From assembly GCA_044892525.1 (NCBI GenBank), contig CM097885.1, positions 208,258,001 through 208,322,000 of the forward strand: a DNA stretch of 64,000 bases. The letters run 5' to 3'. Origin of the DNA: Schmidtea polychroa. Lineage: Eukaryota. The notes under the pieces were generated by a model. That model did no database searches. It had not been told where the DNA came from and saw nothing but the letters and a program-made list of their open reading frames with translations. Shown here in pieces: positions 11,789 through 57,439 of this stretch (the first letter of the stretch is position 1; each line of letters starts with the position of its first letter). Both the position numbers and the translations under genes were made by a program.

Positions 11789-12547
11789 ATGTCCGAACCG
11801 AATCACCCAAAGTCTGGCCCACGGCCATCTTTCTCGTGCGCAGACAAAAATGCGACGATCCGACAATTGAACGATAACATCGGGGTTCTGATGAAGCGAA
11901 TCGACACGTTAAAAGGCACGTGGTTCTCCCCGCCACTCATGAAGGAATCAAATAGAAAAATCTTACGCTTGAATCACTGTAGAGGAAAGTCGGTGTCAGC
12001 GCCTCACTATCAAGGCCCAGTTCGAGGCTCTCCATCGCATTTATTCAGAAGCAGAGCTGAAAAATAAGATTAACGAGTTTCCGATCATCGACAAATCGAA
12101 CGTTTTTCCAATCCATCACCATGCCGATGAAACTAGTGTTCAGACAACGGCGATTTGCCGAAATCATGGCCCTGAAACGTCCCCTTCAATTATACACGAT
12201 GTCATCTTTGTGAGTACCAGCGTGTTATCAACCCAACAGTCTAACGCAATGACATCACCGACAGTCCCAGTGGCTACCACTATCATTCCCATTCAACCAA
12301 CTCCTCTGAAGCGCAAGCGCCTCACCCGTGCCGAGCGCTCAAAGAAACGTCGGGATGAAATCACAGTCATGGAAGCAACGTTATTTGCTGTCCCAGGCCC
12401 AGGGAGAAAAGGATCCATATATCCAACACAGGCCTGGCTAATCTTCCTCAATACCGGGTAGTACCCGTTTCGGAATCTACGTTGTTTCCTGATTCCCAAT
12501 CGGAGATGGATGTCGCTGCACTTCTGAACGAACCTGACGAGTTTTAA
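11789..12547 (+). pseudogene. Family-X ORF (coiled coil / basic / acidic tail), frameshifted copy A
   Basis: RPSFSCADKNATIRQL..IDTLKGTWFSP..MKE; shifted frame RLTIKAQFEALHRIYSEAELK..NVFPIHH; KRKRLTRAER; C-terminus SEMDVAALLNEPDEF*. Aligns by eye along its length with 56080-56829 and 51065-51561. Confidence 0.8.
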
Positions 12548-12856
12548 TGAATAGGCCGCGTTGACCGCCCTCCGGGAAACGTTCATGGCATGATTAACTA
12601 TTCCTCGTATTGTGTGATCTTATTGTTTTCCTATGAACATTCTGTGCACTTGGTTTAATATATGTAATTTCTAAATGTCTTGTCTGAAATGACCCTAAAT
12701 ACAATTCTATATCGTATGTTTTTGTTGCATCGACGGTGTCTAGGAATGATAGAATATTTACGATCTAACAATCGCGCAAAAGAGAAAGAAAGTGGTTAGG
12801 AACACCCTCAGTTGGACCAGAGGAGTGTCGGTAGATCGATATGATTTAATAAGGAA

Positions 12857-12998
12857 GATGTAAGTCCTTCTATCGGCAATCTAGAACCCGAAAGGAGAAT
12901 ACCATGATGAGTATTCTTAACACAGGGGCTCGCCTGCTCATGAATTCCAACCCATGTGTACATTACCAACATGATCGATATCATGGGTGCACATGTGG
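12857..12998 (+). ncRNA. Conserved structured non-coding module, copy A (candidate cis-acting RNA)
   Basis: Core CATGTGTAC-ATTACCAA-CATGAT(CGAT)ATCATG-G-GTGCACATG at 12953-12995; five homologues in the window with compensatory changes. Confidence 0.7.
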
Positions 12999-13129
12999 AA
13001 GTAAAGACAATAATCATAATGGGCGTTTAGGAAGGAGTCCTTCTGAACAGTTATCATTGACCCTAACGACCACCATCACGACACATCCCTAAGCGCCCAA
13101 AAATTTGATTGCAATTAAATAAAATTATT

Positions 13130-26038: not shown

Positions 26039-26300
26039 AGTATTAACGGCATATCGCAGACTATTAAATGATATAAATGTCGAGGACGACATTTTAAACG
26101 ACAGCGGGTGAGACAAATACGATGATAATGACGGAAAGGGTCGAAAGGAAGACAAGGAGAAAAAGACGCCAGAGAATAGTCAAGGGAACAAAGACTCAAA
26201 TACGAGAAGGAAGGAAAATAATCCGGAAAGCAGGACAAAGGAGGAAGAAAGGACAAATAATGGAAAACAGAGGGTATGCCTACTTTTCACCAATAAAGAA

Positions 26301-27296: not shown

Positions 27297-27914
27297 AAAG
27301 GGTTATGACTGTATAAAAATTGTAAAAAGTAAGTATATGAAACATATCTATATAACAGTATTACTATATATCTGTATATAAGCGCGGTATCAATATTATA
27401 TAACGATTGGGATAAATAATATAAAAATAAAATCAGACGAAGGTTGAAAAGGTGTATATAAATTAAGAATGGATCAAATAAACAACGAAATAACTCACAA
27501 CACGAAAACCGAAGATATGTGGAAATAGCAATGTGCAATGTTAGCACAAATAATCTCAAATTTGCAAGAACAAGGAATTACAGTACAAAGAAACTTAGTC
27601 GAAAGTTTGAATAAAGGATTCAGTTAGTAAAAATAATTGAAGATTAACGAGTAAAAATAGAACAAATGTATAGAGAAATAGAACGAATAACGCGATACAG
27701 CCGGATGCAGGAAGAGGAGTTAATAAGAATCGCAGATGAAATGGAACGAGAAGTGATGGAAGAGTGGTCGGAATGGTTAACCAGTAGGGAAGAGGGCGGA
27801 CAGGAGGCCGACTCTTCCAGCCAATAAATAAAACCCCAACAAAGTGTAAATAATTGTATATAGAAATACGAGAATTGTACTAGTAAGAAAATACATGTAT
27901 ATATAATTGTAGAA

Positions 27915-29285
27915 ATGGATAAACAACAGAAGGAGGAGATCAAAGGAATCATCGCACAAATCAGAAAGTCAACAACAATCCGAGTACATAAACATGTAAT
28001 GTGCGGAATATGCGAGAAATTATTGAAGGAACCTCATCAGACAAGGTGTGGATGTAGGCTGTGTAAGGAATGTATAGAAGAGATAATAAAGAAGGGACCA
28101 GTATGTAAAGAGGCATTAATATCAAGCCTGAGGGATACCAACGAGGATAAAGCAGCAGTAAATGATATGCTGAACTCTAACCTATGATGTAAAAACACCC
28201 AATGTAATTGGCGGGGGCTAATATGGGAAGTAAAACAACACATAAAGGAATGTACATACAAAATTAGCCAATGCGAACGATGCCAGAAAAGCATCAAGGC
28301 AAACGAGGAAAGGGAACACCAAAACCAATGCGAGGAAAGACTGGAAAAATGCGAATACTGTGGAAAAACAGATGCATGGAAAGAGTTAACGAACAAACAT
28401 TATAACCTACAAGAGGAACAACTGTATGCAGAATTCAGTGGCGAATGTCCAAACGAATGTGGTAAGAAGGGAATGTTAAAGCTAGCACAGCATTTGAAAG
28501 AATGCGAAAAGAAAAGAATAACATGTGTATTGGAAAAATGGGATGCCAGAAACAGCTACACCGAGAAGATTTGCCACAACATTTAGCGGAAAGTATATCT
28601 ACACACGCAGAAATGTGGTCAACTACATTACAAGAGAGCGAGCACCAAACCGAGAAGTTAGAAAAAGAAATAACCTCTTTAAAGGCATTCGTGAAAGAAT
28701 TATTAGAAGACAGAGAAGCATTCGAAGAAGCAAGAACAAGCACCAAAGTACAGACAAATCTGGTCGAGACCACTCATAACATGGTAAAAGAATTATATCT
28801 AAAAATAAACGAACTCAACTTAAACGAAATAATACCAACAGCACCTTACATATGGAAAATAACAGGGGTAAAAGAAAAGATTCGGAGGGCAAAGAATGTA
28901 AAAGATACAACGATGACCAGCCCAGCATTCCATTCATGGAAAAACGGATACAAGATGAAAATGAAAATATATCCTAACGGAGATGGAATCGGATACGGAA
29001 CACATTTTTCGGTATTCTTCCTGTTATGTAAAGGGGAATACGACGAAATAATAGAATGGCCCTTCCAAGCAAAAATTGACATCGTAATGATAAACAATCA
29101 AAGTGTGCACGAACAAAGCTTTAAAACAGCAGGAAATCTCACATATTATCAGAGACCTTTGGAAGAAGGATCGGCATCGGGAGCGCCTAACTTCATCCTA
29201 CAACGAAGTGGAAGATATGGCAAGAAACGATACGATATATATAAAAATGGCAGTAAGAAGGGAAGGGAAGAGTAGAACTGAGTAG
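27915..29285 (+). pseudogene. TRAF: Intronless TRAF-family gene (RING, TRAF zinc fingers, coiled coil, MATH) with 1 stop and 2 frameshifts
   Basis: RING CGICEKLLKEPHQTRCGCRLCKEC; in-frame TGA 28185-28187, then CKNTQCNWRG..CERC..CEYCG..CPNEC. Single-base frameshift in an A-run at ~28535. MATH YIWKI..SPAFHSWKNGYKMKMKIYPNGDGIGYGTHFSVFF..EWPF. Second frameshift at ~29200 restores NDTIYIK, ending at 29285. Confidence 0.95.
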
Positions 29286-29761
29286 GCAGAGGAGATAACT
29301 TTGTATATAATAATCTGTAAATATCGGTGTATATACCCTATAATATTATATATTATAACCGCATGGAAACCATAAATGTCGTAATAATAAAATCAAACGA
29401 AAAATGAGAAAAGAATAACTAATTAGTAAATAAATGTAAGAGTACAAACATCAATTTAATAATATCATTATTCAGAAAATGACACAAGAAAGAGCAGAGA
29501 CCCCAAACCACACCTCAACAATGCAAGTCGACAGAGGGTGCAAAGAGATATGGAGAAAAGTAATGTGCCAATTGGCAAATAAAACCAGGAACTACCTAGA
29601 GGAGGCTAGGGAATGGGAATTCAATCAGTCCCAGTGGCTAATGTAAAATCTAAGAGCAGAGGCAGAAGCCTGTAAAAGAGCCGCAAAATGGTCGGCATTG
29701 AAAAGCACTCGACAAGAGGCACATAGCCATTACTTAAAACAGTTAGTGCAAGAATCCAGGA

Positions 29762-30112
29762 TTGACGGATGAAAACAGAAAACGAGAAACTGAAAAACAA
29801 AAAGAAGGAAGAAAGATCAACCATCTATTAAGCGAAGCGAGAAAATGGAAACGACAAAACAAGGAAATCAGAAAAGAAATGAGGAAACTACCTCAAAAAC
29901 TGGGATGCAGCAATGACCAGGAGAAATGGGAAGAAAACCTGGACCAAAAAGAGGAACTAAGACGACTCAGGAGAATCGCCGCACGTAGCCAAACGTGGCA
30001 AACTAAGGCGATGGAATTTGTAAGGCATTTGGCGATGAAGATAGCCGTAAAAGAGCAGGAAAACACGGTACGGAAAAAAAAAAATTACGATATGTTTAAC
30101 TACAATGTATGA
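29762..30112 (+). CDS. Short coiled-coil ORF of unknown function (likely decayed)
   Basis: 116 codons, charged heptad-like pattern, same strand and composition as the cargo block. Confidence 0.35.
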   Translation: MTDENRKRETEKQKEGRKINHLLSEARKWKRQNKEIRKEMRKLPQKLGCSNDQEKWEENLDQKEELRRLRRIAARSQTWQTKAMEFVRHLAMKIAVKEQENTVRKKKNYDMFNYNV

Positions 30113-30160
30113 CGTATACGTGAATTGCGGGACGCAATTTTAACGGGCCCCGGAGTGATT

Positions 30161-31329: not shown

Positions 31330-31990
31330 TTTGGGGTGTAGTGGGTGGATTTGTCCTTCATGACGGTGTGAGAGTGGTGGGCAGCGATGCCTGTGACTCT
31401 TGGGTGTGTCATGAGGGGTGGAGAAACCCCGAGATGAGATAAAGAGAATGACAATAATAATTCCAGTTTCGTTGAGTGCGATCAGAAGAAGCATAGATTT
31501 CAATTATTTTCCATAAGAAGCATCGAAAAGTTCCATCGTCTGAATATCTCGATATGTTCGCATAGTCTCCGTTTCGTCGTCCAGCATAACGAATCATACT
31601 TTGTCGATAAGCTCATTTCGATAGGGGATGGCCATTTAGAAGACCTACTAGGTAGTCGGTTAAGAAAGATCCATGAGATGGCAATCACGATTTTCCTGAT
31701 TCTCGTGTTAGTGGCTAGATCCATCCTCCTACTGAGAAATCTAAAAATTTGACGTCAAAACAGTTTCCATTGACCCGATGCCGTCACTGATAATGTTGAT
31801 AACCTACACAAAAATTAAAAATCGTTATTAGTACAGACGAATCCGCCAGTGCATCCACATCGAAAATGCCATATCTAGATTTCTGCTAGAACCGATTTTC
31901 ACTAATCTACGAGATACATCTGTCTTGTCGAGCGGGATTACATTTTCTTTTTGCGTCATAACATAGATGACATTTGTACCGGTAACGAAT
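31330..31990 (-). pseudogene. Highly degenerate MATH-like ORF remnant (tentative)
   Basis: Minus-strand peptides ..MHWRIRLY*, DDGTFRCFLWKII and LLIALNETGIIIVILFISS resemble MATH strands. Shares GGGGTGTAGTGG with 54107. Confidence 0.3.
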
Positions 31991-32111: not shown

Positions 32112-33155
32112 CACGGGTTCCCAACCGGGGGTCTATGGACCCCATAGGGGTACGTGGAGCACTCCTATGGGGTACGAGAAGCGCGGCCGGTAAGGATTTT
32201 TGTCTCGAATTTTTATTGATAATATTTCATTGTTTTAAAATTTAGTAACAAACAAAAATCGCAATTTTTTTGAACACGGTTCGGTTTTTTCAAAGTAAAT
32301 TTCCTAAAACTAAATACAATAACAAATATGTACATATGGATTTCTTATTTTTGAAATAATAAATAAGTCGTTATAATATATTAATTATCAAATTGATATT
32401 GTTTTTACTAAAACGTGTACAAAAAATAAATATCTATAACGGGTTTCAATTTATTTGGGTAGTTACAATAAATAAACCATTGCATATTTAATTGTCTTAG
32501 TTTTTAGAAATAATTATTTTTTATTATCGACAGCTAACCCATACTGTCACAATGTCAAAGAAGCGTTGTTATCAGGACTCATATATTCAATTCGGTTTCA
32601 CTTTCTTAGTTGACAAAGATGGATTGGAAAGGCCACAATGCATACTTTGCTCGAAAGTACTTAGTAATGGTTATATGAAACCATCCAAACTTAAGGAACA
32701 TCTACAAGCAGTCCATCCAAACAACGTTAATGACACAGAATCTTTATTCAAAATTAAGAGAGCCCGATTTGAAACAAGCACAAAGCTCACCAATCACGGA
32801 TTTCTTCCCGAGAAAAAACCAGCTTTAGAAGCAAGTTATCGTGTGGCATTGAGGATTGCGAAAGATAAAAAACCTCATGCAATCGCGGAAACTTTGATTA
32901 AACCATGTGCGATGGAAATGGCCGAAATTATGTGTGATAAGGACGCAAAACTTAAAATATCACAAATACCACTATCAAACAACACAATTCACGATCGAAT
33001 TAAAGACATGTCTTATAGCAGATTGTAGAACAAATAAAAGAAAGTTCAACAAAAATTGGATTGCAATTGGATGAATCCACTGATGTTTCTAACTGTGCTC
33101 AACTTCTTGTTTTTGTTAAATATGTGTATAGAAACGAAATCAAAGAGGATTTTCT
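32112..33155 (+). mobile_element. Buster/Charlie-type hAT, left end plus truncated transposase
   Basis: TIR CACGGGTTCCCAACC preceded by TGATAGAT (central TA, Buster target consensus). BED finger RPQCILCSKVLSNGYMKPSKLKEHL, ASYRVALRIAKDKKPHAIAETLIKP, PLSNNTI, LQLDESTDVSNCAQLLVFV. Truncated where module B begins. Confidence 0.93.
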
Positions 33156-33373
33156 TTGAACCCAAACTGCGAGTTTACTAAGAGTAGTCCTAAGGTAGGG
33201 GCTCACCTGTTAGTAAATTCCGACCTATGTGCGCAGTACCAACGTGTGACATGGCCACGGGCACACATAAGGGAAATCAGCTAAGGTCATCTTGGATATC
33301 CAGGGAACCACACGCTGAGCAGACGGGGACAGTTTTATCTTATTTTAATTTTCTTCCTTCCCGGGTATCCAAC
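33155..33373 (+). ncRNA. Conserved structured module, copy B, with CCAACA terminus
   Basis: Core CCTATGTGCGC-AGTACCAA-CGTG..CACG-G-GCACACATAAGG at 33224-33272; upstream GAGTAG..GGGGCTCACCTG; ends TATCCAACA. Confidence 0.65.
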
Positions 33374-36120
33374 ATAATTAAAAAAATGTACGAGGATGTC
33401 TGAAGCTTCATCAGAATCGACTATTTCATTTCAAGAAATTCATAGACGAATGCTCTTTCTATACATGACGAACGAGAGATTCGGCAGGTCACCAGTAGGC
33501 AGTAGAATTTACAACAATATGCCAACCAATCCAGGTCCCACTATCCAAAGATGAACTAATCCATTCACAATAATATATTTTCATTGATTATTCAAATCGA
33601 AAAGTTGCCATATAATCCATTTTGAACCCCGTCATAAGTATTTGGCTAAATCAAAACGGGGCAAGTACTTAAGTTTATTCAGCTGGTGGCTTTAGTAGAC
33701 AGATTTAACTTCAACTAATGATACGCTGCAACATCCCAAGCAGTCACCGAGGAACTTCAAAGATCAGCTCACAGCAATTTCAAAAATCCTATCAGAGTCA
33801 TATTAATAATCATATTAGAAATTCTTTCCCAAATACTCGAAGCAACTGTATATTTCAGGTGAACTATGAATACTTCAATGTATATTTAAATAAATAAATA
33901 AATATCTTATTTTTTATGCATTATTTTAACAAAACTTTAAAAATTACTGAAATCCAAACAAAGCTCGATTGACTGTCTCATTTATAAACCAAGGAACATC
34001 TAACCAGGCATAAGTTAAAAATTCAATCAAAGACAGTGAAATTAGTCATCCATGTTTCCATCCATTTAAAATCTACTACAGACATTTGATTGTCGGAACC
34101 ACATAAATAATGATTGCAATATTGAAATTGCATACCTTCACTAACTATGTACATTGCATTCAAATGAGCAAACAAATTTCAACTTGGAATGTGCACACAA
34201 GCGATCCCACGCACATCAACCCCACACAACCACTAGGTCACCAATCCACAACAACATCTGTACCTCTGTAATCAACAGGCATGCATGCACACTAGGTAAG
34301 TTTGTGTGTTATACTGAAATTTTTAATTTACAGAATTTAAAGTCATCTTACTTAACTCTGTCACTATTACTACACTGCGCTTCTCCACTGTCTCGGACCA
34401 CTCTCTTGTTTTATATTTTCACACTTTTGTAGACCCCGTGGTTAACAAAATTACGAAATTGTCAATCCATCATATCCTAATATTTGAGTATAAGGTATTT
34501 CCTAGATATATGCCCTCATCAAGAGATAATATATCTGTCTGTTATAATATGCACATTGAAAGCATCTGACTAAGCCTAATTTCTAACGGATTGCACCATC
34601 CTCAACATCTACATCAATCACTACCGCATTATATACGTATGCCTTAACATTTGCATATTTCCTGAATGGAGTTGTACAGTACAGAATTATTTTTCAGATT
34701 TATTGTACTGGTGATTCATTGGCGACCTCCCATGCCAAACATTTCCTTATGTCGAACATTGGAATTGCCGGTACCTACACACACACGTTATACACATAAC
34801 CACCAAACCGGCGAGAGAGCAAAATGGGCAACAAACTAACTCTCAGCATTGTCACCAATTGTCACAAACTTGCACAAGTACAGTAAAAAAAATTCACGTG
34901 AATGTGTCTGCTTTGGAATTTTTAGCAGAGACAGAGAACTTGTAACCAAACGATGCAAATTATCTTTTTGTAAAAATCATTGATCTGGTCAGGCAACAAC
35001 TTGTGATTGTAAGAATTTTTCCATTGAGATGACTTTCCCTTCGTCGTTTATTGCTTTATTTCAATTCCAATTATATTGAATGGGTTGCTTGTTGGTTATT
35101 TTGATTATTACTTGCTTACTGCAACTTCAAAGACATTTTTCACGTAATGAGTGTTATAATCAATTTCGAATTCACTTTCTTTATTGTTCTATCGTTCAAC
35201 CGTTTGTAAGACCTTTTTCAATGACTAAACACAATTTACATTTATTTCAAAGATGCCTAAAATTGAAATTCTATTAATTCTATTAATTTATTTTTCTTTT
35301 CATGTCTGTGAATTATTCTAATTCGTCCTTCGGTGATTTTCCCAATTCTTCGCACTTTTGAACTTTCCCAGAGGCATTCATTAGCCGCTTTTCAGATTTT
35401 CTTGCAAATTTAAAGGTATTTGTTCTATATCCGAAATTTTCTTTTGATTTAATATTTGTATTTTGTAATTTATTGTTATTTTTTTATTGTTATTTTGTAT
35501 TTATTTGCTAGAATTCACTTGGCTGTTTGTTGTTGCTCCATCTGTCATGAAATAAATAGTTGAGTTGTTTTCTTTTATTTCGGTGTTGATTTTTATATAA
35601 TTATTGATTCTGTGTTATCCAACTTAATTTTTATTTTAATTACATATAATTACACGTATTTCTAAAGTGATTTTTATTTTTAAATTTCCGATTTTTATAG
35701 TTTTTGGTCAGCTTTTATTTTTTATATAATTAGTTTCATTCCAAAAAATGATTTTTATTTAAAATTTTCTACTTTTATGGTTTTATTCAGGCTTTCCTTT
35801 GATCAAATTTAATTTCATTTCTAGTATAATTAATATATTTTACGTTTCCAATTTTTGTTCCACTTAATTTTCTTTTAACCATAATTAATTTTTATTTCTA
35901 AAATAATTTTTACTTCAATTAATTTTAATTTCTAAGTAATTTAAATTTCTAATTTTCGGCATTTAGTATTTTACTTTATACACTATTTTCCGTTCTTATT
36001 GTTAAAATCAAACTTTCCGAATAATTGGCACTTTTTAAACTAGAAAATTTATCGTTTCGCAATGTTTTCCGCCAAAAGCAGTTTATTAACAATCAAATCC
36101 CGACTGAGCCCCAAAAATCA

Positions 36121-37957
36121 TGTTGGTTACTTAGGGGTGTGTCATTTTAAATACGTTAGGGGTAATCATAGGTATTCACTAGACTCTTTCCTAAGCACCT
36201 CCATGACTATTGTACTTTAAACCATTTGTTTACCCATGGCGACGATCATGTTGGTACTGTACACAAAGGCGAAAAAACAATGAGCAGGTGAGCTCTATTG
36301 CTAAAACTACTCCCCATTGTATTTTCTCTTCGGGTTCAAAACGGCCGATAGAAGATCTTAAGTCATTAGTCATTTTCTATTTCTACTTTCCTATTTTATT
36401 CAACTATGGTCCTAATTTCAATGTTTCCTATTGTTCTTTTTTAAAATTTTGTCCAGGGATGAGCCCTTATTTTTCTGTCATAAATAATTATGTGTTTTCT
36501 ATAATACTTGTCGATAAATTATTTTCTATAAATGTCGTTCCATATTTTCGAAGGTTCTTGTGAAAAATGTAACCAAGTTCTTTTAAAATTTTGAGTAGAT
36601 GTCTGCCCTTATTCCCAAGTAAATAAACATGTTTCCACACTTCTCATAAAAATTTGAGCAGGGATCTGTCTGTATTTCTAATCCTGAACAATCTTAACAA
36701 TTTGTGGATTCTATAAGATTACCTAAACCTACTTTATCTACCGACAACTGGTCCTAACTATCCTATTATTACTCCTAACTCAGTAGTATCTGTGAAAAGG
36801 TGACTAAACCGTCTGCTAATAATTTGCAAAATTACCTATCTACCACTGGTCTTTCCACCCTTCACGGTTCACTCGAAAACCACCGGTACAAGTACCAACC
36901 ATTTCCGAACGACCGTGCCAGACGAATTGACCATATTACTATATTTTATAAATTATCCAATGATCAAATAATTCTAAACATAAACAAACAACAAGAATTA
37001 ATGAAACAAATTCAATTAAAAATTTTATTAATTCATAAAATTATATAACATTAGACTTAACAACAATAGAAATAAATACAATACTAATATCAACGAAAAT
37101 TAACTTCATTTTAAAATAACATTAGACTTAACAAAATTACATTACACATACAAAAAAATCAAATTTACCTTACCGCGATAGCATACACCAAAAATTGAGA
37201 GCTCCTGATATAGTCTGGTAAATTTCTGATTGAACAAGTTTAATCAGTTGAACAAGTGAAATTTCACTCAGTATTTATACTGATTGAATTGTACGCCTAC
37301 GCATTCTATGCTGCTATATCCAATTAGAATGCGAGGCAATTCTGATTAATTTTTGCATGCATGCGTGAATGTGTGCAATTGTTTATTTTTTAATTTAATC
37401 AATTTAATTAATCAAAATTATATTTTTTACTAATTTTTAAGATTTATTTTTATAATTCTATAATTTAAATAGTTTTTGCTAATTTTAATTTAGTTTTACA
37501 AGTTTTTATAATTTAAATAAGTTTAGTTAACTTTATTTTAGTTTCATTGATTTAAACAATCTGGTTTTATAAATTTTATAATTCATCTAATTTTTCTACT
37601 TTTACTCTACTTTTTATTATTTTATCAGTTTACTAGATATTTTATTTTAAATTTTATATTTATTTATTTAACAATTTTTCATATTATTAATTAATTTATT
37701 ACCCATTATTTTATTTATTATTATTTTATTTTTTTTGTTGTTAGCTATTCCGAATGCGATATTTCTCCTAACTGTGTCAGTGATCGTGACCTTTTTTTTG
37801 CGTTCCTTTATTTTATTACCCGGTCTTATTTATCATCAATGTGTTATGTACTTTAATTTGTATTGATTGGTGTTCTAATTTAACTTGGTGCGATTTTTAT
37901 GTTATATATTTTTGATTCATTAAAACAAGCTCTCAATTCTTTGGTTCTAGCCCAACA
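36121..37957 (-). mobile_element. 1.84-kb TGTTGG...CCAACA-bounded cassette (promoter, donor, decayed ORF, structured module)
   Basis: Plus-strand TGTTGG at 36121 and CCCAACA ending 37957. On the minus strand: A-rich tract, CTAATTGG and TATAAA at ~37325-37270, GTAAG donor at ~37170, broken ORF ~36960-36400, then module F. No TSD. Confidence 0.55.
36222..36364 (-). ncRNA. Conserved structured module, copy F
   Basis: Minus-strand core TTTGTGTAC-AGTACCAA-CATG(ATCGTCGC)CATG-G-GTAAACAAA (36267->36225); upstream CTTCTATCGG..GAGTAG..GAGCTCACCTGCTC. Confidence 0.7.
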
Positions 37958-37959
37958 AT

Positions 37960-40900
37960 ACTAAAAAATCGACCGTTGGTTACTCTGATTCCACGTGTCC
38001 CAAAAATCGATAAACACAAACTCCCAACGTATATTTGTTTTATAGCAAATTTACAATTCTCAATAAATGATTACAACTTTTAGTTAAACACGATTTTGCT
38101 CTCGATTTCCGATCGAACTTCGCTCTGGAAAGTCTCGTCCTTGTGCGATTAAAAAATAAGTTTCACCTTTTTATTTGATTCCACTCTCTAATCCGAAATC
38201 TTTTAATACTCCTTTATAACTCTTCAGTTCCTCTTATAATTCTTTTTTTCTTGACTTTGTTCCTCTAATTCTTATTGTCAGTTTCTTCTTCCCTACCTAG
38301 GGCCACTGCCGATTATCTGAATTTAGAGTTTCCTTATATACTCCCATAATTGTTGTAATTGCCCCATGCAGGGCCGCGCCAAGCGGGGGTGCTGGGGAGG
38401 CCTGCACATGAGCACCACGTCTTAGGGGCGGCGTGCGCCAAATGTACATTCGAGCGCGCGTGAAATCATAAATTAACATTTTAGGCACCCACTTTAGTGG
38501 AAAATATATTCGGTCAATAAAATGTGCAAACTTTTTGTAAATTTGAGTAAATTGAAATTCAAAATGCAATACGAATTAAATTTACTACATCATGTTAAAA
38601 ATAATAGGTTTGCAATTACCACTTCGTCCGCGCTACGATATGATAATACAATGGACCGTGGGAACAGGAACTGCATCCGCGCCAGAGTAGGAGGGGGTTT
38701 GATGCTGAAATTTAGGACGCAAGTGTTAGTGCGCATTTAATAATGTAATTGGACTAGTCCAGTCTAGCATTTATAGTTAGGTATAAGTGAATTGTGTTTT
38801 GTGAATTCTAAAAATGTAAGTACCTACAATTTTCTACATTGTCTTTTACATTGCTGTATTTATAAATAATCATTAGTATTTACTTCTATCATTTTGGTCA
38901 TAAGAAATTCACCTTACAATTGCATATCAAAAAATGCTGATCAGTTTAGTTTTAGATTCTGTGGATTTTTTTAGATCAAAGTTGGAATTTTTAATTCATG
39001 TAGGTTTGTCTAGTTTTGACCGAAAAGAAGGGTTGATCGAATAAAATTCCCACTGTAATCCTAAAACCTCTACAATTAAGTAGTTTTTGGTGATTTAACT
39101 GCATTTCTTTATGGATTAAAATAATTGAACCGTATTTTAAAATTAATTTATTGAAAAAGTCTTGTAATTATGGTTTTGTACAACAAATTTTTAGTAAATA
39201 AAATTAAAATGCCTAAACTAAAACAATTGTTTTACTATTTTTTTTAGATGTCTGAGAAAAGAAAGAAGTTATCGGGTGCAGCATATAGGAAACGAAAACT
39301 TGAAAAAGAAGAAATCAAGATAGTATGTACTTATCACGCTTTTTTCAACCAGTTCCTTCCTCAAGTAATTCAACGCCTGCTGAATCTGAAGAGAAATCGT
39401 CAAATTTTTCTGGGAATGACAGAGGAGGAAGCAGTTTGTCATCTACATCAATGGAAATGGAGGAAATATCTTCACAATTGGATATCGAGGTATCAAGGAA
39501 GATCAGGAACCAGAATCTATTTCTGGCAAAAATAAAAGTAAAGACGTCTCAAATATAATTCAATTAGATTTAGATGATCCAGGTCTATGGCCTGAACTAA
39601 CAGACGAAGTAAGAATGTTATTAATAGCAATAGGACCAAAACAAATTAAAAACTTTAACTTTCCAATAAATGATAAAAGATCTTTTGCGGAGAATTACTA
39701 CATTAAAACTTTAAGTAATGGAGAAAAAATCAATAGGAATTGGCTAGTTTATTCTATATCCAAAAATTTAGTATACTGTTTTTATTGTAAATTATTTACA
39801 AATAATGATAACGCATTTAATAATGAAAATATGTATTGTGATTGGAGACACTTATCACAAGCCATAGAGCCATTTGATTAGTTTTAAATCTGTTATTGAT
39901 TTAAATAAATTAACAAATAAAAATAAAACTATTGATTCAATGAAAAATTAATTAATTTAGAAAAAGAGATGGTGATTAGTCATAGAACGAATTATTCATG
40001 GTGTTCAGTATTTAGCGTGACAAAACTTAGGGACATTTAGAGGAACAGTTAACAAATTTTACGATGCCCATAATGGGAACTTTTAAAATTAATGGAAACA
40101 TTTGCTCAATTTGATGGTGTCATGGCTGAACATTTAAACCGCGTTCAAAATAATGAAAATAAAATACCACATTACCTTGGTGAAAAAATTCAAAATGAGT
40201 TAATATTTTTAATAGGAAGAAAAATTAAAACAGAAATAATTACTTCACTAAAATTGTGCAAATATTATGCATTTATTAGATTGCACTCTCGATATTATCC
40301 ACCAGGAACAAATAACTATTATTGTGCGATTTGTTCATTTAAATGGTGTTAACAAAAAAATTGAAATTAGAGAACATTTTTTAGGCTTTTGCCCTATATT
40401 AGACTCTACAGGAGAAGGTCTAACCAGATTTGTAATAGACTTTTTTAATCAAGAAAATATTAGCATTTACGATATGCGTGGTCAAGGCTACGATAACGGA
40501 GCTAATATGAAGGGAAAACATATTGGTCTCCAAAAAATAATTTTAGATTTAAATTCAAGAGCTTTCTACGTGCAATGTGCTAGTCTAAATTTAGTAGTGA
40601 ATGATGCCGCTAAGGCGTCTCTTGAAATTACAAACTTTTTTTCTTTAATTCAAGAAATTTATCTGTTCTTTTCTTCATCAACTCATCGTTGGCACATTTT
40701 AATGAAAGAGTGTCCTTATATGACCGTTAAACCAGTGCCTGAAACAAGGTGGGAAAGTAGAATCGACGCTATAAAAGTTTTAAGGTATAATTTGGAATCA
40801 ATTTATGACCATTATTTGCTTTATTTAATGATTCATCTAGAGATGCTAATACCAAAAATATGGCTAAATCTCTCATAAAAAAAATTAAGTCATACAAATT

Positions 40901-41300
40901 TATATGTTCTATAATTATTTGGTATAACATATTATTTAATGTAAATGTTGTAAGCAAATTCTTGCAAAAAAGTGATTTGGTTATGCCAACTGCAATTGAA
41001 ATGCTGAATTTGCTTAAGATTTTTTTTACTTATTTGGGGAGGGGGCGGCAAATTTTGGCCCCATGTTTGACCTAATTAGTTTTGACTTCCTTAGTTATCA
41101 TTCTCTAATTAGTGGTTACAGGTAGTATTGACCAAATATTTTCCATTGTTTTTGGAGTTAGAAAGAAAGGAAATGGAGATCGGTCGAGTTTCTAAAAAGG
41201 TTTCCATTAGAAAATATTGCTTATAAAATTAACGTTGATTTATCAACAATTGGTAATGGAAATATATTGAATATTTAATTGTAGTGTAAGAAATGAATTT
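37960..41300 (-). mobile_element. LTR-like unit (homologue of 5062-5761) split by a hAT insertion
   Basis: 37960-38368 is the reverse complement of ~5370-5730, and 41058 onward continues as the reverse complement of ~5320-5365. Confidence 0.8.
38369..41057 (+). mobile_element. hAT (Tip100/Blackjack-like) transposon with frameshifted transposase
   Basis: Left TIR CAGGGCCGCGCC; 8-bp GCCCCATG at 38361-38368 and 41058-41065. Transposase motifs NGEKINRNWLVYS..VYCFYCKLF, GNFLKL..FD, DCTLDIIHQEQITIIVRFV, RGQGYDNGANMKG, FFSSSTHRW, ETRWESR. Confidence 0.93.
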
Positions 41301-42229
41301 TTAAAATATTAGATAAAGGAAAAAATAATCAGACAATAATCCTAAATTTAGATATAATATATAAATAAATTATTAATAATATTATTTTGGTTTAGTTTTT
41401 GTTTAGTTATTTGGCAGACTTTTCAAAAATCCTCTAAGATAACTTTTTGATAAATTGTTTTCAATTTCACATTTTCACTTATATTTTGTTTATTCGATAG
41501 TTAATATTCCTTCAATGCGTATATCAGTTTTTATTATTCAACGATGAACGAATTGGATGAACACAATTTTGAAATGATGAAGAAAGTGCAAATAACACAT
41601 CGTGCATAAGCGCAAGATTAAGAAAATGATTTTGAAGAAATGCGTTATATAAGTTAATTGTACAAACATTATCTTTTTGATCTTTTCTTATTATTACTAC
41701 ACAACTGAAAATGTAGACAAACAAAAGTTAAATTTTTTTATTTGTTCGTTAAGATACTTTAATATTTTTTTCGAGTTCCTTTTAATTTATTTGTAATTGG
41801 CTTAAAAGTGAGTACAAGTTATACATGAAAATATTGAAATTATTTAATCTTTGGATTTCAGAAATATCTGAAATTTATTCAAGAAACAAGATGTCATTTT
41901 TTTAATTTAGATCTAGGAAAATGGGTTTATGGCTTGACTATGCAGTTGGACTTCAACCCGGCGCGCACCAGGGATCTCGTGGGCTTGAGCCACCAGGACC
42001 ATAAAAAATTATTAAATTTATTTTGACGTATGCCAAATTTTAATGAGTGAAATTACCTTAATTATTAACTAGAAACGATTAACTACAAAAGGGTTTACTA
42101 AGTCCTCAGCAAAAGATTTGATAAGTGTATTTGACTGTGTAAAATAAGCGGCACCTTTTGCAGTAAATACAAAGGATTTAACTCCCTTCCTGTCCAAAAT
42201 GAATATAAAAATACTGGTAAGTTACAGGT

Positions 42230-42430
42230 AGTCAAACATTTTACCCTTTCGTTCTGTTTCCAGCGTAACTCAGAATACAATGATAATCCTACCAATTGAT
42301 ACCCGATGAGTGATCATCGTTGGTAATGTATCAAGTGGGTGAGTGCTCGCAAAAAGTAAGCGCACTACTTGCGATATAATTGTCGGGCACTCTTTGGGTC
42401 CACGGACAATAGATAGAAGATATACGTCCG
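42230..42430 (-). ncRNA. Conserved structured module, copy E
   Basis: Minus-strand core TTGATAC-ATTACCAA-CGATGA(TCAC)TCATCG-G-GTATCAA (42334->42296); flanks align with 49205-49400. Confidence 0.7.
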
Positions 42431-42561
42431 ATTTGCTCTGATCCCTTGACTATTGTTTTCCCAAGTTTCATAATTCTTCCGCTCAACCTCATCAAACTAA
42501 CATGCATCACACTAGTATGAAGGCACTACAATTTTATTTACAGGCTAAACATATCACTCGT

Positions 42562-42768
42562 TTATTGTTTGTGAAGGGGTTCGTGTTGCGACGATCCAGG
42601 TTGGACCGGGCGCTCTTGGTCAGCTAACTGTAGTCGCTTTAGCCGTTCTCTTCCATCTCGGCCTAGTCTCTTGCGCTTTGGTTTGGCTGGCTTGTTTGCA
42701 TGAACCTCGGCCAGCTCCGCGGCTACAGGTCGAAACGCTGCAGTGACGTGATCATTTGGGTTAGTCAT
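42562..42768 (-). pseudogene. Family-X-related C-terminal fragment
   Basis: RPVAAELAEV..KPKRKRLGRDGRERLKRLQLA..GSSQ aligns with RPLSVELAAI..KPKRKRLGRNIREKLKKARLA..GSSQ of 48533-49003. The coiled-coil part is missing. Confidence 0.7.
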
Positions 42769-44491: not shown

Positions 44492-46100
44492 TGTTGGGCT
44501 AGAACTGACTTCTAGACCCAAACTTGAATTGTGACTGAAAGGTGTAGGTACACAACATGCAAAAAAAAAAGTGTAGTTAAATATTAAAATTACATCAAAT
44601 AAACAATATTAATTAAAGGAGAAAACAACAAAAGCATAAACACCGAAATTAAATAAAATCATACCAAAAGCAAGAAGTCATGCAAAATCTAACTCAAAAA
44701 ATGATCAAATAAACATAGAGTTACAAGAAACAAACTCGAATAACTTAAAAGCTGGTAAGAACAGTAAAAAATTCCAGAAAAACCCAGAACATTCCATAAA
44801 AATGGCGATGACCATCATAAAAGCTATCTTAAACAATAAAATTTAGACAAAATCAATAAATTAGTAATAAAAATGAAAATTCGTAAAAAGAAATCCATAA
44901 AACACCAATTAAAATAAAAATTAAATTAAAAGTGAAATAGAATGTTCTGGAACCGTTCCAAATCCATCATGGACGTAAAATTAATGAAAAATAATTAAAG
45001 AATAAAAATATAAAAATAAAAAAAATTATGGCACAAAAATTGCCATTAAAAATATCGAAATTACAAAATAGAAAGTTCTGGAATAAAAAGAATTCGAGTT
45101 TGTTTTAATGCATCAATACATACACGTGTACAAAATAGGTATATATACTGACACGTTTCAGTCACAATCAATCACTATTTTATGCCAATTTTTGCAGAAA
45201 GTATTGCCAACGAAAATAGTAAGAATTGTTGATTTTTTTTTATTGCATTAATGAAGTACTTTTTAAATTAGTTATCATTTTATTTGTTGATTTTTATTAT
45301 ATTAATGAATTATTTTTTTTAATTTATGATTATTTTATGTGTTGATTACATTAATGAATTACCTTTTCAATTTATGAGTATCTTATTTGTTGAGTTTATT
45401 ACATTGGTGAATCACTTTTCAATTTATTATCAATTATGTAGGGGAATCGAAGTAATTGCATTTTTTGATGTCTCTTGCTTTAGATTTTCTCCAGTGATGT
45501 ACGAAGGTTCGACGGCGTACTGGTATTCCTGCGTCGTCGTTCGGTCCTGCATCTAATTTTTATAGCACATGCATTATCAATATTATAGCAATCTAATATT
45601 ATATCATCCTTTTTTGTTCGGGTCTTTCGGGGGTCGAACTACTTCATGGTCCTGCCATGGAGTTAGGTTGAGGAAACCCTCCGTCTGACTCTTTGTATTT
45701 ATGTAAGGTCGACCGTAAATGGTTGACTCAACACACAACACTAAGGTTTGTGGAAGTGGTCACAGTGGGGCCATGGAAGCAATATTCTTCCCGACTTTCA
45801 GTTAATACACATGTAAAATCCACATTCAAAATCACGAACAAAAACTCTACATTAAGGTTCTAAATTGAGTAGAACTCGTACCTAAAATGACACAATCCTG
45901 CACTCACACTCATGTAGCTGGTTGACCCTTAATAGTAATTGTAAGTATACTTAGACAGATGCCGAACTAGAATTTGAAATAAGAATTTACAGTAAAGTAA
46001 TAAAATGAGAAGGATCGTCGGCATGTGTATAAGTATAGTTTAATTTAGATAGGCTAATTAAAGTAAATGTAGATATCATAAATGTAATTCTCCAGAAACA
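44492..46100 (+). repeat. Long LTR-like repeat, inverted copy of 1-2232; 5' part also matches 61673-62401, 62782-63513 and 24670-24750
   Basis: Shared TGTTGGG(C/T)TAGAACTGA.TTCTAGACCC start and GGTATATATAC box; see the 1-2232 feature. Confidence 0.8.
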
Positions 46101-46320
46101 AATTACAAATTGATCAGGAATCCTACTCTAATACATTTGGGTAAATGATAAATGAACAACACGGATAAATCTTAACTATAAAAATAGACCATAAGCAAGT
46201 GTATATAGATCAGAAAATATAAATCTAGTTATGTATGTATATGTTAACTCTAAATAGGTAACCTAGTAAGGATAATAGATAGATTTTTAACCACAAAGAT
46301 ATAAATGTTACATATAATTT

Positions 46321-47960: not shown

Positions 47961-48326
47961 ATGTCCCAATCAGATGAGTTCAGCGATGAAGAAAACCACC
48001 GACAGACGATCACCCGCCTCCGGACCCGTTACATCTGGCACCATATACATCGGTGGGGTCAGGGAAGGGACCTAGATTGTACGGAACGAGTAATCCGGAC
48101 AGGCCCCGAAGTAGATGCCCCGGCATGGGTGAAGGTGGAACCGGAGAATAACCGGCTGCAGGAGGCCCGAGACCAAGCGGCCTGGGAGGTGGAAGCCGCT
48201 CAGATGCGACTCAGGAAGATCGAGTTACAAATCCGGGCGAAAAGAGAAGGAGTGCCCGTGGAGGAGCTAGAGGAGGCCATAGTATTCCCACGAAAGAGAG
48301 GGAGGCCCCGCAAATGCCGAGGGTGA
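47961..48326 (+). CDS. 121-aa protein with coiled coil and C-terminal AT-hook
   Basis: ATG directly after an acceptor-like TACTACAG; GC-rich island; ends PRKRGRPRKCRG (AT-hook core RGRP). Confidence 0.6.
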   Translation: MSQSDEFSDEENHRQTITRLRTRYIWHHIHRWGQGRDLDCTERVIRTGPEVDAPAWVKVEPENNRLQEARDQAAWEVEAAQMRLRKIELQIRAKREGVPVEELEEAIVFPRKRGRPRKCRG

Positions 48327-48532
48327 TCAAGGACCAACTATTGACTTACTATAATTGTGTGTATTGTGACAAATAATCAAAATTGGTTGAGGATCATGTG
48401 TTACTCTTTTTAACAAAATATCTTTTGAATAAATTTCTTATTTAATAGCTCAAGTATCGTGATGCATGATATTGACCTTATTATATTGAACAAGGGGAAT
48501 GCTGCAAGCCAGTAATCGTTGTAATTTATCTA

Positions 48533-49003
48533 GTGATCAAACTATGCGAAAATCTACGAAAGGACAGAGAAGAAGCCCAAAAACAGGCCGAGGAGCTCCG
48601 TATACGAGTGGACAAACTCAAGGGACGGTGCCGTGAACTAGAAAGCACCTGGTTTAGTCCTCAAGATATGAGGAAGAAGTTGACACCGGTCCTCCAATTG
48701 CAGACTCAAAACGCGCAGGATCAGATGGAGATCCGGGCCTTGAAACTCCAACTCCGCGCGTTGGAAACCGAACGCAATGAACAAGCGGTTCACGGAGCCA
48801 CCATAAGTCAAATCCGGCCGTTGTCCGTGGAGTTGGCAGCCATTTACCCTCCGGCCGCGAAAGATAAGCCCAAGAGGAAGCGGCTGGGGAGAAACATTCG
48901 TGAGAAATTAAAGAAGGCCAGACTGGCCGAATACGAAAAGCAAGTGGGCTCCTCGCAAATATCTACGACGGGACTAATCGGCCCCACCAACCGGCCAAGT
49001 TGA
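48533..49003 (+). CDS. Family-X divergent member (start codon uncertain, GTG)
   Basis: Coiled coil RIRVDKLKGRCRELESTWFSPQDMRKKL (compare IDELEGTLFSPAQMKE) and basic KPKRKRLGR; 156 codons open. Confidence 0.65.
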   Translation: MIKLCENLRKDREEAQKQAEELRIRVDKLKGRCRELESTWFSPQDMRKKLTPVLQLQTQNAQDQMEIRALKLQLRALETERNEQAVHGATISQIRPLSVELAAIYPPAAKDKPKRKRLGRNIREKLKKARLAEYEKQVGSSQISTTGLIGPTNRPS

Positions 49004-49204
49004 ACTTCCATTCCTTGATGTGTACTTCTGTAGTGTGTTTATATATCTAGTAGTATTAAAATGATATTTCCTTTGCTTGTTGTTAAAATAATACATGTTC
49101 GGTAGCGTTAAAAATGTCTGATATATTTTATGATTGTGTGAAAAGTGAGAGTTCGCACGTAAGGTTGGGAAAACAATTTTGATAAGGGACCTAAGGAAAT
49201 CGGA

Positions 49205-49340
49205 CACAAACCTTCTAACGGTAGTCCGTGAACCCATGGAGTGCTCGACGATTATAGTGCCTCGAGGCGCTCACTTTTCGCGAGCACTCAACCCTTGGTA
49301 CAGGACCAACGTTGATTACTCAACGGGTACCAAGCGGAAA
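49205..49340 (+). ncRNA. Conserved structured module, copy D
   Basis: Perfect core CTTGGTAC-AGGACCAA-CGTTGA(TTAC)TCAACG-G-GTACCAAG at 49294-49334. Confidence 0.72.
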
Positions 49341-49961
49341 CACTAACGTTGTATTTTGGGTTACGCTGGCAACAGCACTAAAGAACAAAATATTTGATCA
49401 TCAGTAACCCACCAATAAGATAATGAATAAAATGACGAAAAACGCAACAAATAACGAGGAATTTAAGAAACAAATAAAAAATATAAAAAAAATAAAGGAA
49501 AATAAGGAAAACAACCAAAGAAATAAGAAAAACAAATTAATTTAAAAATTAAAGCGGTACTCGATTTTGATTGGTCCGCATAAACGAAAAATGCATATAT
49601 AAGTAAACAGTAAACTCATTATAGTTACTGTTAAACCAAACCATTTACAGGTAAGAAATAATGACAAATAGTTACTGTTAAACCAAACCATTTACAGGTA
49701 CTCGACTATCCAGACAATCACCGGACATTCAGAAAACAGACGACTACTAGGAACAACTATAACTTCGATCTAACACTATAACCGATTTAATTAGCTTTTC
49801 GGCTCAGCCTTTTTGAATCACCGATTTACGAACGATAAGTAAGAATGTGTTTTTATTGTGAAATTGCGTAAATGTTTTTCGAAGTTAAAAATATTTTTAG
49901 TATATCAATTTAACAGATTTTAATAAACCTTCTTCATTCGATCTCACTTTTTAATAATAAT

Positions 49962-51017: not shown

Positions 51018-51064
51018 TAATGATTTTATGATCAAATTCAAATACTAATGGTAGATGAATATTT

Positions 51065-51561
51065 ATGATATGTCTTTATATTCACTCCGCCGAATATATA
51101 GGGTCGTTTAAACGAAAAATTGATACGCTGGAGGGAACATGGTTTACTCCTGCCAGTATGAAGGAGGCTCGCATGAAAATTCTCCGTCTTGAAAATTGCC
51201 GCGACAGCTTGTTGCAAGAGAATCTGAGCCAGAGATTCACCATCAAGGCACAATCGGCTGCCCTTCATCGCATATACTCAGACGCTGAACTAAAAGCGAG
51301 AGTAGCAGAATACCCAATAACGGACAAGGGAAATCTTTTCCCACTCATCATGATTTAACTCTCCTAAGGCCCGATCCATCTCTTTGTTGCAGTGCACACG
51401 GCCCAACTCCGGCATCTCCAATTCTCACCGACATCGTTAAGGCCTCTACGTCAACAACTGTACCGCCAGTCACTACTTCATCAAATCCGTCAACGTCGCA
51501 GCCAGTCGTTTTGCCTGGAAAACAGAAGAGGAAGAAACGGCTAACACGGGCCGAGAAAATC
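51065..51561 (+). pseudogene. Family-X copy, frameshifted (~51340) and 3'-truncated
   Basis: KRKIDTLEGTWFTPASMKEARMKILRLENCRD..RFTIKAQSAALHRIY..NLFP (frameshift) HHD..KRKKRLTRAEK, then replaced by AT-rich DNA. Confidence 0.8.
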
Positions 51562-52086
51562 ATAAAAGTTAAAATTTATAAAATTATATTCCGATATGAG
51601 GATAGAAATAGTATATATTAATATAATTGTTATTGCATAAGTAATTTGGGGAATCAACAGAAATGTTTCGAGTTATCCTTTTAATTATAAGATGGTGGAA
51701 AGACATCAATTATCATTATAAATTATATACAAATAATCGTCAAAAGTATGATATATGATTAGATAATCGTAAAATTAATCCAGTAGGTGGGAAAATTTGA
51801 GTTTGGTATATGGTTGGCAACTTTTAAAGTTAGGGTTTATAATTTAGATAAAACATAGAATTATAACTCGCTTTTGAATGTATGGGTGGAAAAGGGTTTA
51901 CTATATAAAATTTTAAATAATAAGTTTTATTAATTATGTAAATGAAGAAATTAAATTTCATTGACATTAGATGAATGAATTTGGATAAGATGTAGATTAT
52001 AGATCCTGAGTTGCGTATATGCATTTCGAAATTTTTGCCGAAAATTATTAACATGATTGTCCTTCTAGTTCGTGAATTTTTCATTT

Positions 52087-56079: not shown

Positions 56080-56829
56080 ATGATACCAACTGCCAAGCCC
56101 GCGTTACGTCCGTGCTTCTCCTGCTCGGATAAGAATGCGATTATAAAGGATCTGCAGGCCCAGATCGGGCGATACAAAAAGAAGATAGATGAGTTGGAGG
56201 GCACCTTGTTCAGCCCCGCTCAGATGAAGGAGACCCAGAAAAAGCTGTATCGCAGCGAACACTGTCGTGACGCTCTCATCTCGGAGAGTCGTTCACAAAG
56301 GAGCTTGATAAAGGAGCAGTCCGAAGCACTGCAAAAGGTTTATTTACAGGCAGCGACCACCAGAAAGATTGTGAACATTCCCATTCGCGAAGCCGATGAG
56401 CTCTTTCCGGCGCACCATGATACTTCTGCCGAATTGCCGTCTTCTTCCAAGAAATCTTGCCGACAGTGTGTAGAAACGGAACTCTCACCAAAAGACCCAG
56501 ATCTCATCATCACGGGAACGAGCAGAGTACAAAGTGAAAACGCACCTACTGATACTGTGCCACAGAGAAATCAATCAACGTCGAAACCAAAGCGTAAGCA
56601 GTTATCGCGGGCAGAGCGTAAGAGACGACAGCGCGAACGAGCGAACATCCAGCAAAACACCACCGTGATGGAACCCCCAACTCCCCGAAACGTCAACCCC
56701 GCAGTGATAGATCTAACCACCGGAATCCCAGCACGGATTATCTCGGCTGCTGGCGTAGTATGGGAGGAAAATGACTCCGAATTTTTCGACATCGACGAAT
56801 TATTACGGGATACCGAGTGGGAAAAGTGA
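56080..56829 (+). CDS. Family-X intact member, 249 aa, unknown function
   Basis: Uninterrupted GC-rich ORF in AT-rich surroundings. RPCFSCSDKNA, coiled coil, LEGTLFSP..MKE, LFPAHH, KPKRKQLSRAERKRR, acidic tail FFDIDELLRDTEWEK. Two close and two distant paralogues in the window. Confidence 0.8.
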   Translation: MIPTAKPALRPCFSCSDKNAIIKDLQAQIGRYKKKIDELEGTLFSPAQMKETQKKLYRSEHCRDALISESRSQRSLIKEQSEALQKVYLQAATTRKIVNIPIREADELFPAHHDTSAELPSSSKKSCRQCVETELSPKDPDLIITGTSRVQSENAPTDTVPQRNQSTSKPKRKQLSRAERKRRQRERANIQQNTTVMEPPTPRNVNPAVIDLTTGIPARIISAAGVVWEENDSEFFDIDELLRDTEWEK

Positions 56830-57085
56830 GAAACTCTAGCAGAGAGTTTAGTGACTATCACCTCTATCATTAGGATTGTATGTGATTCTCTGTCGTACCA
56901 TCTATCTGTACATATGGATCTTCTGTTGTTTTAAGAATGAAATACATTTATTCCTGTTCCTTTTATTTATTTCTGTTAGTGAGGGTTAGACATAAAAATA
57001 TATACCCAAATGTTCTGAAGTTGGATGAGAGTCAGCCAATTTGCATTCGATTTACCGAAAATGAGAGATTTGGATAATTCGAAAC

Positions 57086-57230
57086 GACGTAAGACCTTCT
57101 ATCGGCCGTCTAGTGCGGGAAGTCGAGACCTCAGTAAGGAGTAGTTTTAAGGCAGAAGCTCACCTGCTTACTGGCGTCTCGCCGGCATAGTGCAGTATCA
57201 ACGTGAAGCAGTTCACGGGCCCTATGTTGG
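57086..57230 (+). ncRNA. Conserved structured module, copy C
   Basis: Core CCGGCATAGTGC-AGTATCAA-CGTGAA(GCAG)TTCACG-G-GCCCTATGTTGG at 57182-57230, with two G-U pairs. Confidence 0.7.
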
Positions 57231-57439
57231 AGTGTAAGTTATGCGGGGTCCTACTCAGTGTTGGAAAAAGTAGAGTATTTTTGGTAGAATGGGCAATCAA
57301 CCCTTAGACTAGCCACAAACGAAATAGCCAACCGAGTTACCACCCCAGCAGTACCATAAAAAGTAATTACCTATTGGGTAACCTTCCTTGCGATAAACTA
57401 ATATCTTGAAAAAAATGTGCAAATATAGTGACTAATTGT

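Follow-up and report, generated by a model that had tools for sequence, protein, structure and literature searches.

A 1,837-bp repeat unit was examined in a 64,000-nt window of the Schmidtea polychroa genome (GenBank assembly GCA_044892525.1, contig CM097885.1, positions 208,258,001 to 208,322,000, forward strand; window position 1 is its first letter). An initial annotation had described the unit, at 36121..37957, as a modular gene cassette in which a shared promoter and a shared 3' RNA module (here module F) surround interchangeable open reading frames (ORFs), or else as a very long long terminal repeat (LTR) carrying genes. Our analysis indicates that the unit is very probably a 5' LTR followed by its primer-binding site (PBS), and that F is a real, conserved structured RNA new to Rfam. 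The features located in and around the unit, each with its basis, were as follows:

36121..37957, minus strand: complete 1,837-bp LTR, very probably the 5' one of a truncated element (end motifs, PBS, depth, contig joints)
37320..37324, plus strand: putative CCAAT box, inverted relative to the transcript (sequence)
37273..37279, minus strand: putative TATA box, TATAAAT (motif)
37168..37174, minus strand: candidate 5' splice donor, G/GTAAGG, ~100 nt past the TATA box (motif only)
36869..36934, minus strand: 21-codon ATG frame behind AG; no credible gene and not family X (ORF and profile scan)
36420..36680, minus strand: three imperfect ~60-nt repeats in the LTR body (sequence)
36395..36400, minus strand: candidate poly(A) signal AATAAA, 46 nt 5' of the first conserved motif of F, which would make F the unique 5' region (U5) of the LTR (motif only)
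36121..36365, minus strand: module F, structured RNA (folding, alignment, covariation)
36331..36339, minus strand: 9-nt complement to the T-arm of tRNA-Pro, resembling a primer activation signal (0/200 shuffles)
36093..36113, minus strand: tRNA-Pro PBS, 21 nt, 7 nt past the LTR end (tRNA 3'-end scan, pattern search)
35300..36092, minus strand: A-rich start of the internal region, over which repeat depth fades to single-copy by ~35200 (depth table)
37958..38367, minus strand: a different ('G-type') LTR, broken by the unit just before its 3' end (80% identity to 5360-5742; G-type ends)

The inverted TGTTGG/CCAACA ends reported by the initial annotation are present. On the minus strand, the unit opens with TGTTGGG at 37957 and closes with ACCAACA at 36121, matching at 13/14 positions the pattern TGTTRNR...YNYAACA described as the LTR integrase end signal (PMC3601003). 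Scanning the window with the tRNA-Pro 3' end gave the PBS, which the initial annotation had overlooked, a score of 32, compared with 22 for the runner-up site and maxima of 18-22 in 8 block shuffles. A pattern based on the PBS recovered 118 metagenome loci, and 29/30 of the loci checked were tRNA-Pro 3' ends; other copies in the sequencing runs fit the tRNA better than the PBS of this unit. Separately, 53940-54005 (+) contains a G-like LTR end with a weak match to tRNA-Pro behind it, the match at 53981(+) scoring 22, which is within the null range.

The unit is also present in high copy number. In run X1 (DNA), the summed contig depth over the unit was 4e4-1.3e6 versus ~200-430 on unique contigs, and run X2 showed the same pattern. 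This equates to 100-5,000 times the depth of unique DNA (order of magnitude only; summed contig depth is no copy number). Depth falls beyond the PBS, reaching single-copy level near 35200, and several contig joints terminate at 36121. Runs X7 and X12, whose RNA origin is only guessed, contained no splice joint and count as evidence neither way.

The CCAAT/TATA promoter and splice donor claimed for the unit were likewise recovered as motifs (37320-37324, 37279(-) and 37174(-)), and the first third of the unit is AT-rich. AATAAA occurs at 12 sites in total, including 36400, and the TATA and poly(A) motifs, as motifs only, both lie inside the repeat. The same promoter type had been reported ahead of different ORFs at 30161, 43771, 49410 and 53031. 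This stood for three of the four, TGTTGGGCT starts being found at 30161, 43771 and 53031, but 49410 lacks TGTTGG; the frames following these starts had no Pfam match. A strict CCAAT-TATA-donor pattern, which misses the unit's own promoter by one donor letter, occurred at 3 sites (49569+, 53368+ and 50391-) versus a mean of 0.53 and a maximum of 2 in 30 shuffles.

No real ORF was found in the unit. An ORF unrelated to family X, a protein family encoded elsewhere in the window and described below, had been placed there; the longest sense-strand ATG frames are 47 aa (within F) and 20-23 aa elsewhere, and family X profiles gave no match inside the unit. The reported absence of gag, integrase or a convincing reverse transcriptase agrees with our Pfam scan, which returned no match to these in 148 stop-to-stop frames; the 148 were drawn from the 367 window frames of at least 48 aa and lie mostly outside 1-11 kb, 15-24 kb, 38.6-41 kb and 58-64 kb. 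A search for target-site duplications (TSDs) at 4-6 nt returned just two 4-nt chance matches, in unrelated DNA. Given that the window holds neither a second LTR nor a TSD, this copy was judged to be truncated.

Module F occurs six times in the window, with a core identity of 46-76%. In addition to the unit, the copies and their associated ORFs were distributed as follows:

11789..13100, plus strand: sister LTR piece A, with splice acceptor, ORF X in two frames (11789-12461) and F (12856-13100) (similarity, profiles)
33140..33374, plus strand: F copy C with a CCAACA end, cut just upstream of F (similarity, RNA model)
42205..42732, minus strand: sister piece D, with a C-terminal ORF X remnant bearing the basic motif (42732-42604), then F (RNA model, profiles)
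47961..49420, plus strand: sister piece E, with ORF Y (47961-48326), ORF X (48536-49003) and F (49200-49420) (RNA model, profiles)
51059..51621, plus strand: copy of ORF X in two frames, not followed by F (translation, RNA model, profiles)
56080..57345, plus strand: sister piece F57, with splice acceptor, open 249-aa ORF X (56080-56829) and F (57083-~57345) (RNA model, AlphaFold)

F and its tail had been recorded twice by the initial annotation, in the unit and with copy A; the similarity to copy A holds (36123-36360 versus 13100-12861, 70% over 242 nt, E 2e-30) but the number of copies does not. A further part of the tail, placed at ~31395-31420(-), was reduced to a short motif at ~31400-31412(-), where the RNA model finds no F. 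This model, which was built from the six copies themselves and in which the pairing of domain I is poorly registered, identified no seventh F in the window. Searches against Rfam, ribozymes included, returned nothing on F up to E 5 and 2 chance matches elsewhere.

The layout of F comprises a stem with an internal loop and a hairpin (domain I), a stem whose 8-nt loop faces a single G, again with a hairpin (domain II), and a terminal long-range stem. In a plain MAFFT alignment of domain II, 91.1% of 112 cells paired and two-sided changes occurred in 11/19 pairs. This degree of pairing and covariation was matched by 0/500 shuffles, whilst slid partners paired in 28-47% of cases, and hand-anchoring gave 82/90 paired cells with 25 two-sided changes. 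The covariation supports the shared 3' RNA module proposed by the initial annotation. Domain I (long stem, small internal loop, hairpin) recurs in the single-copy folds of most copies despite differing sequences, as does the terminal stem closing at the LTR end; both were judged copy by copy, without a controlled count. The sense strand folded better than the antisense in 5/6 cores, and the unpaired motifs kept across the copies include the 8-nt loop, the single G and CUUCUA.

Because the candidate AATAAA lies 46 nt 5' of its first motif, F is best read as U5, putatively folded so that a T-arm motif comes near the PBS. A role of this structured U5 in the priming of reverse transcription is suggested by the motif it holds, complementary to the T-arm of the primer tRNA, an arm that stays free once the PBS has annealed. 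The motif sits near the 5' side of F and in the same place in 5/6 copies. The complement is 9 bp long in this unit (0/200 shuffles), 8 bp in copy C (4/200) and 7 bp in three further copies (19/200, 21/200 and 46/200), and is absent from F57 (182/200). In HIV-1, the primer activation signal pairs with the T-arm of the tRNA, and such a signal has been predicted in HTLV-1, which is primed by tRNA-Pro (PMC11251516). The planarian arrangement resembles these in having a T-arm-complementary motif upstream of the PBS and, as in HTLV-1, a tRNA-Pro primer. It differs in distance, the F motif lying ~220 nt upstream and bridged by three stems compared with ~10 nt in the HTLV-1 prediction given there, and in the 7-nt gap between LTR and PBS in this unit.

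Taken as a whole, we consider it likely that the unit represents the 5' LTR of an LTR retrotransposon present in high copy number, that F is its U5 priming platform and that X is an accessory regulator in sister elements. Under this model, the element would have integrated close to the 3' end of a different LTR, with nearly its whole internal region lost afterwards. RNA polymerase II would start ~25 nt past the TATA box, the genomic RNA would retain the strong splice donor, and poly(A) addition in the 3' LTR would take place just ahead of F, leaving F as U5. The three stems of F would then bring the T-arm-complementary motif close to the PBS, where host tRNA-Pro would prime reverse transcription in the manner of a retroviral primer activation signal. 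Sister LTR families with F in common would carry accessory gene X (coiled-coil dimer plus basic helix) between the splice acceptor and F, and the family of this unit, lacking X, would either use X in trans or do without it.

Several observations weigh against this model. The T-arm match beats shuffles only in this unit and copy C, the copies do not count as independent, and the comparison relied on a tRNA from another eukaryote. The canonical AATAAA is found upstream of F in only 2/5 copies. The covariation shuffle ignores relatedness, and with n = 6 related F sequences the result is strong but gives no probability; folding of the whole of F is weak in some copies, with z ranging from -5.77 to 0.00 (this unit -2.19, F57 0.00). 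The 7-nt gap between LTR and PBS is longer than the usual 0-4 nt. Finally, no second LTR, polypurine tract or TSD was found in the window and no gag or pol in the frames scanned, so that we infer the superfamily, most likely Ty3/gypsy.

ORF X is closely linked to F in the sister pieces. X or an X remnant lies 185-407 nt upstream of F on the same strand in 4/6 F copies, those without X being this unit and copy C, which is cut directly upstream of F; one of the five X copies, at 51059, has no F behind it. AG acceptors were found just ahead of the X ATG in copies A and F57 and were unclear in E (2/3 checked), and the X subtype tracks the F subtype (D with E, A with F57). The alternative offered by the initial annotation, very long LTRs that carry genes, was thereby supported: a PBS follows the LTR that makes up the unit, and the sister LTRs hold ORF X between a splice acceptor and F. 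Family X is LTR-internal and has no Pfam model.

A profile of four window X copies searched against 1.84 billion proteins returned 19 matches, 16 with the core motif; the remaining three (P0004, P0015 and P0019) were repeats or coiled coils without this motif and were dropped. A second profile search added two more, giving 18 distant relatives in other gene sets, and a profile of the outside relatives alone found the window X copies again (E 5e-23 to 2e-7). Identity of the relatives to the F57 copy was 19-32%, and they are therefore probably from other species. Nine of the ten looked up were single, unnamed UniParc gene models, mostly fused to unrelated host domains, and at least 13/18 relatives carried such fusions; we read them as element exons caught in gene predictions. 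A pattern scan of viral contigs gave 4 matches to the first pattern, which were rejected because they lay in phage coding sequence unlike anything in the window.

The AlphaFold model of the F57 protein (predicted template modelling score 0.35) comprises two helices (15-39 and 46-98), followed by a loose linker and then by a basic helix at 177-194. Modelled as a parallel homodimer, the first two helices scored 0.49 versus 0.00 for the best control, with 95% contact agreement between runs and a predicted local distance difference test (pLDDT) value of 83; the same mark was reached by 21/30 solved microbial homodimers, 0/23 monomers and 7/16 animal dimers, though a coiled coil may reach it because the predictor has memorised such structures. 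A stretch with 6-12 Arg within 16 residues (e.g. RRRPNRNRRRRERRR) was found at a conserved position in 8/16 relatives, and a basic motif at the matching position in the full-length window copies. An export-signal-like motif, L-x3-I/L-x2-L-x-L, occurs at a shared position ~80 aa past the Arg-rich motif in 2/16 relatives. Single-sequence homolog searches with ORF X, a search of ESM Atlas at 0.9 and a sequence search of the PDB each found no match, and a fold search in BFVD gave 0/500 at E<=0.001. Given its Arg-rich helix, dimer model and export-like motif, together with these blank homology and fold searches, X resembles a protein of Rev type in its parts and not by descent. It is probably a nuclear RNA-binding regulator, though it may be a DNA-binding transactivator or a plain nuclear-localised protein.

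This architecture raises the possibility, doubtful at present, that F serves mainly as a response element for X, as in the Rev, Rex and Rec systems, with X binding the internal loops of F through its Arg-rich helix and exporting unspliced genomic RNA, a role compatible with priming. It would account for the conserved Arg-rich position, the predicted helix at 177-194, the dimer model, the shared position of the export-like motif and the pairing of X with F subtypes, and it has precedents in RcRE, the HERV-K response element, which lies in the LTR (PMC6916052), and in CERV of Cer1 (PMC10309623). Against it, the Pfam REV model matched only 1/19 X members, at E 7e-4, which falls short of the curated cut-off and can be explained by the Arg content. 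The export-signal pattern is absent from F57, the sole open full-length X in the window, and also matches unrelated positions in 5 relatives and copy E. The very abundant family of this unit keeps F without X, and F as U5 would not be at the mRNA 3' end, unlike RcRE.

In its fullest and equally tentative form, the idea would point to an invertebrate LTR retrotransposon clade with a whole module resembling Rev and its response element (RRE) inside the LTR, where a spliced gene encoding a dimeric, Arg-rich protein lies directly upstream of the RNA which that protein binds and that RNA is also a priming platform. If so, each solo LTR would by itself amount to a regulator gene, and families without X, that of this unit among them, would obtain the protein in trans.

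Rec/RcRE of HERV-K, Rex of HTLV and Rev/RRE of HIV (Rev-like retroviral proteins are reviewed in PMC3856414) share an Arg-rich motif with X; their multimerisation and Leu-rich export signal would have counterparts in the dimer model of X and in the candidate export motif of its relatives, and RcRE resembles F as a structured RNA in an LTR. They differ in having no significant sequence or fold homology to X, and in that the X gene itself lies in the LTR and F seems to be U5. CERV of the C. elegans element Cer1 is the closest working precedent for an accessory export protein in a Ty3/gypsy element. It is made from a spliced mRNA and is needed for export of the unspliced genomic RNA (PMC10309623). 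Like X as modelled, it is an accessory protein with a coiled-coil part, CERV having a basic nuclear localisation signal and a candidate nuclear export signal, and it differs in size, position and domains.

A non-autonomous cassette (TRIM/LARD-like or cargo-swapping), with promoter and F fixed and the middle exchanged, was considered improbable. F is common to families with X, with X and Y, or with neither, and depth over the middle of the unit (36680-37047) is 20-30 times lower than over the promoter and F. This pattern fits subfamilies differing in their middle, and ordinary LTR subfamily divergence together with nesting accounts for it. One X2 contig, running from window position 37940 to 36121, joins the LTR end head-to-tail to the LTR start over 10 AT-rich bases at a depth of 1,448 versus ~40-85 on unique contigs, as a cassette might; this joint may represent multi-copy tandem LTRs or insertion beside LTR ends. 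The cargo-swapping cassette of the initial annotation gained no direct support: the unit is a single LTR with no cargo ORF and no TSD, followed by a PBS and an internal leader, and X is the only recurring cargo, so that the cassette is not needed to explain the locus.

We regard it as rather unlikely that F is a new self-cleaving ribozyme or 3'-end-forming element of the kind found in retrozymes and Penelope-like elements. Its conserved unpaired motifs, kept across copies of 46-76% identity, resemble tertiary or catalytic contacts. Against this, no covarying pseudoknot was seen on inspection, no known ribozyme in Rfam matched F up to E 5, and the position of F beside the PBS fits U5. That the repeats are segmental duplicates of host genes or functionless chance nesting is very improbable, for although broken repeats are densely nested in the window, this reading is largely refuted by the PBS, the LTR end motifs, the extreme depth and the two-sided changes seen in F.

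With the 5' LTR reading retained, there is nothing unusual about the unit as such. Uncatalogued are the ~250-nt RNA fold, kept across LTR families with only half their sequence in common, and the LTR-internal gene family X. Our literature search found no description of F or X, nor any account of planarian LTRs that contain structured RNA or a Rev-like gene; the comparison lay outside Repbase/Dfam, and the LTR families may therefore already be catalogued. Export of intron-containing genomic RNA by non-retroviral LTR elements is known for few cases, CERV of Cer1 being one, and a small protein adjoining a short, defined RNA makes the export question directly testable. The X family would also account for spurious exons in host gene models. 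General background was taken from PMC11410931, PMC8532177 and PMC13238120.

Base composition, the TRAF gene and the character of the gene models all suggest a planarian host, and among planarian elements we infer a Burro-like parent. Burro/GYPSM1 are giant Ty3/gypsy elements with accessory ORFs bearing MATH/TRAF domains (PMC6431247), and the likeness lies in the AT-rich genome, long LTRs and accessory ORFs, the window holding a RING-zfTRAF-MATH gene. No Burro gag-pol, BIR, BCL2 or env was found in the window frames scanned, and the sections of the Burro/GYPSM1 description compared here, by description and not by sequence, give no LTR-internal gene, PBS type or U5 structure (PMC6431247). In the portion consulted, a survey of env-carrying Ty3/gypsy elements likewise gives no LTR or PBS for 6/6 S. 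mediterranea elements, leaving their primer unsettled there (PMC13524379).

The RING-zfTRAF-MATH gene (27864-29275) is split into three frames, and nothing ties it to the unit; longer forms of the TRAF piece found nothing in single-sequence homolog searches. It lies in a strongly A-rich tract (25300-30160, +; 45% A, 18% T) that ends at the LTR start 30161 and also contains a 394-aa open frame belonging to no family; the tract resembles the part of a giant retroelement that carries accessory genes.

ORF Y (47961-48326, +) encodes 121 aa behind an AG acceptor, directly ahead of ORF X in piece E, and ends in RKRGRPRK, which we take to be an AT-hook-like motif. It had no Pfam match and no usable ESM Atlas match, and could be a second LTR-borne regulator. 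The LTR start at 44492 is colinear with a copy at 2232-450(-) up to 46083 and has a short stretch in common with the start of the unit; if it runs on unbroken to F, ORFs Y and X would both lie inside a single LTR of ~4.9 kb (44492-49420, +).

The 'G' type of LTR end is present in 8 copies (4675, 5709, 13165, 13302 and 57501 on the plus strand; 37998, 50008 and 52141 on the minus strand). These have a conserved GGACAC...GAGTC motif and a small hairpin, predicted in most, 30-50 nt before CCCAACA. At 61293-63513, a 1,112-bp segment is repeated exactly in tandem (100% identity), which may be an artefact of assembly. Broken DNA transposons, recognised by translation and for two by Pfam, lie at 2650-4270, 10787-11557, 15247-15594, 22246-24551, 32501-33140 and 39248-41030; they are presumably Tigger/pogo-like, Tc1-like helix-turn-helix and several hAT/BED-finger types.
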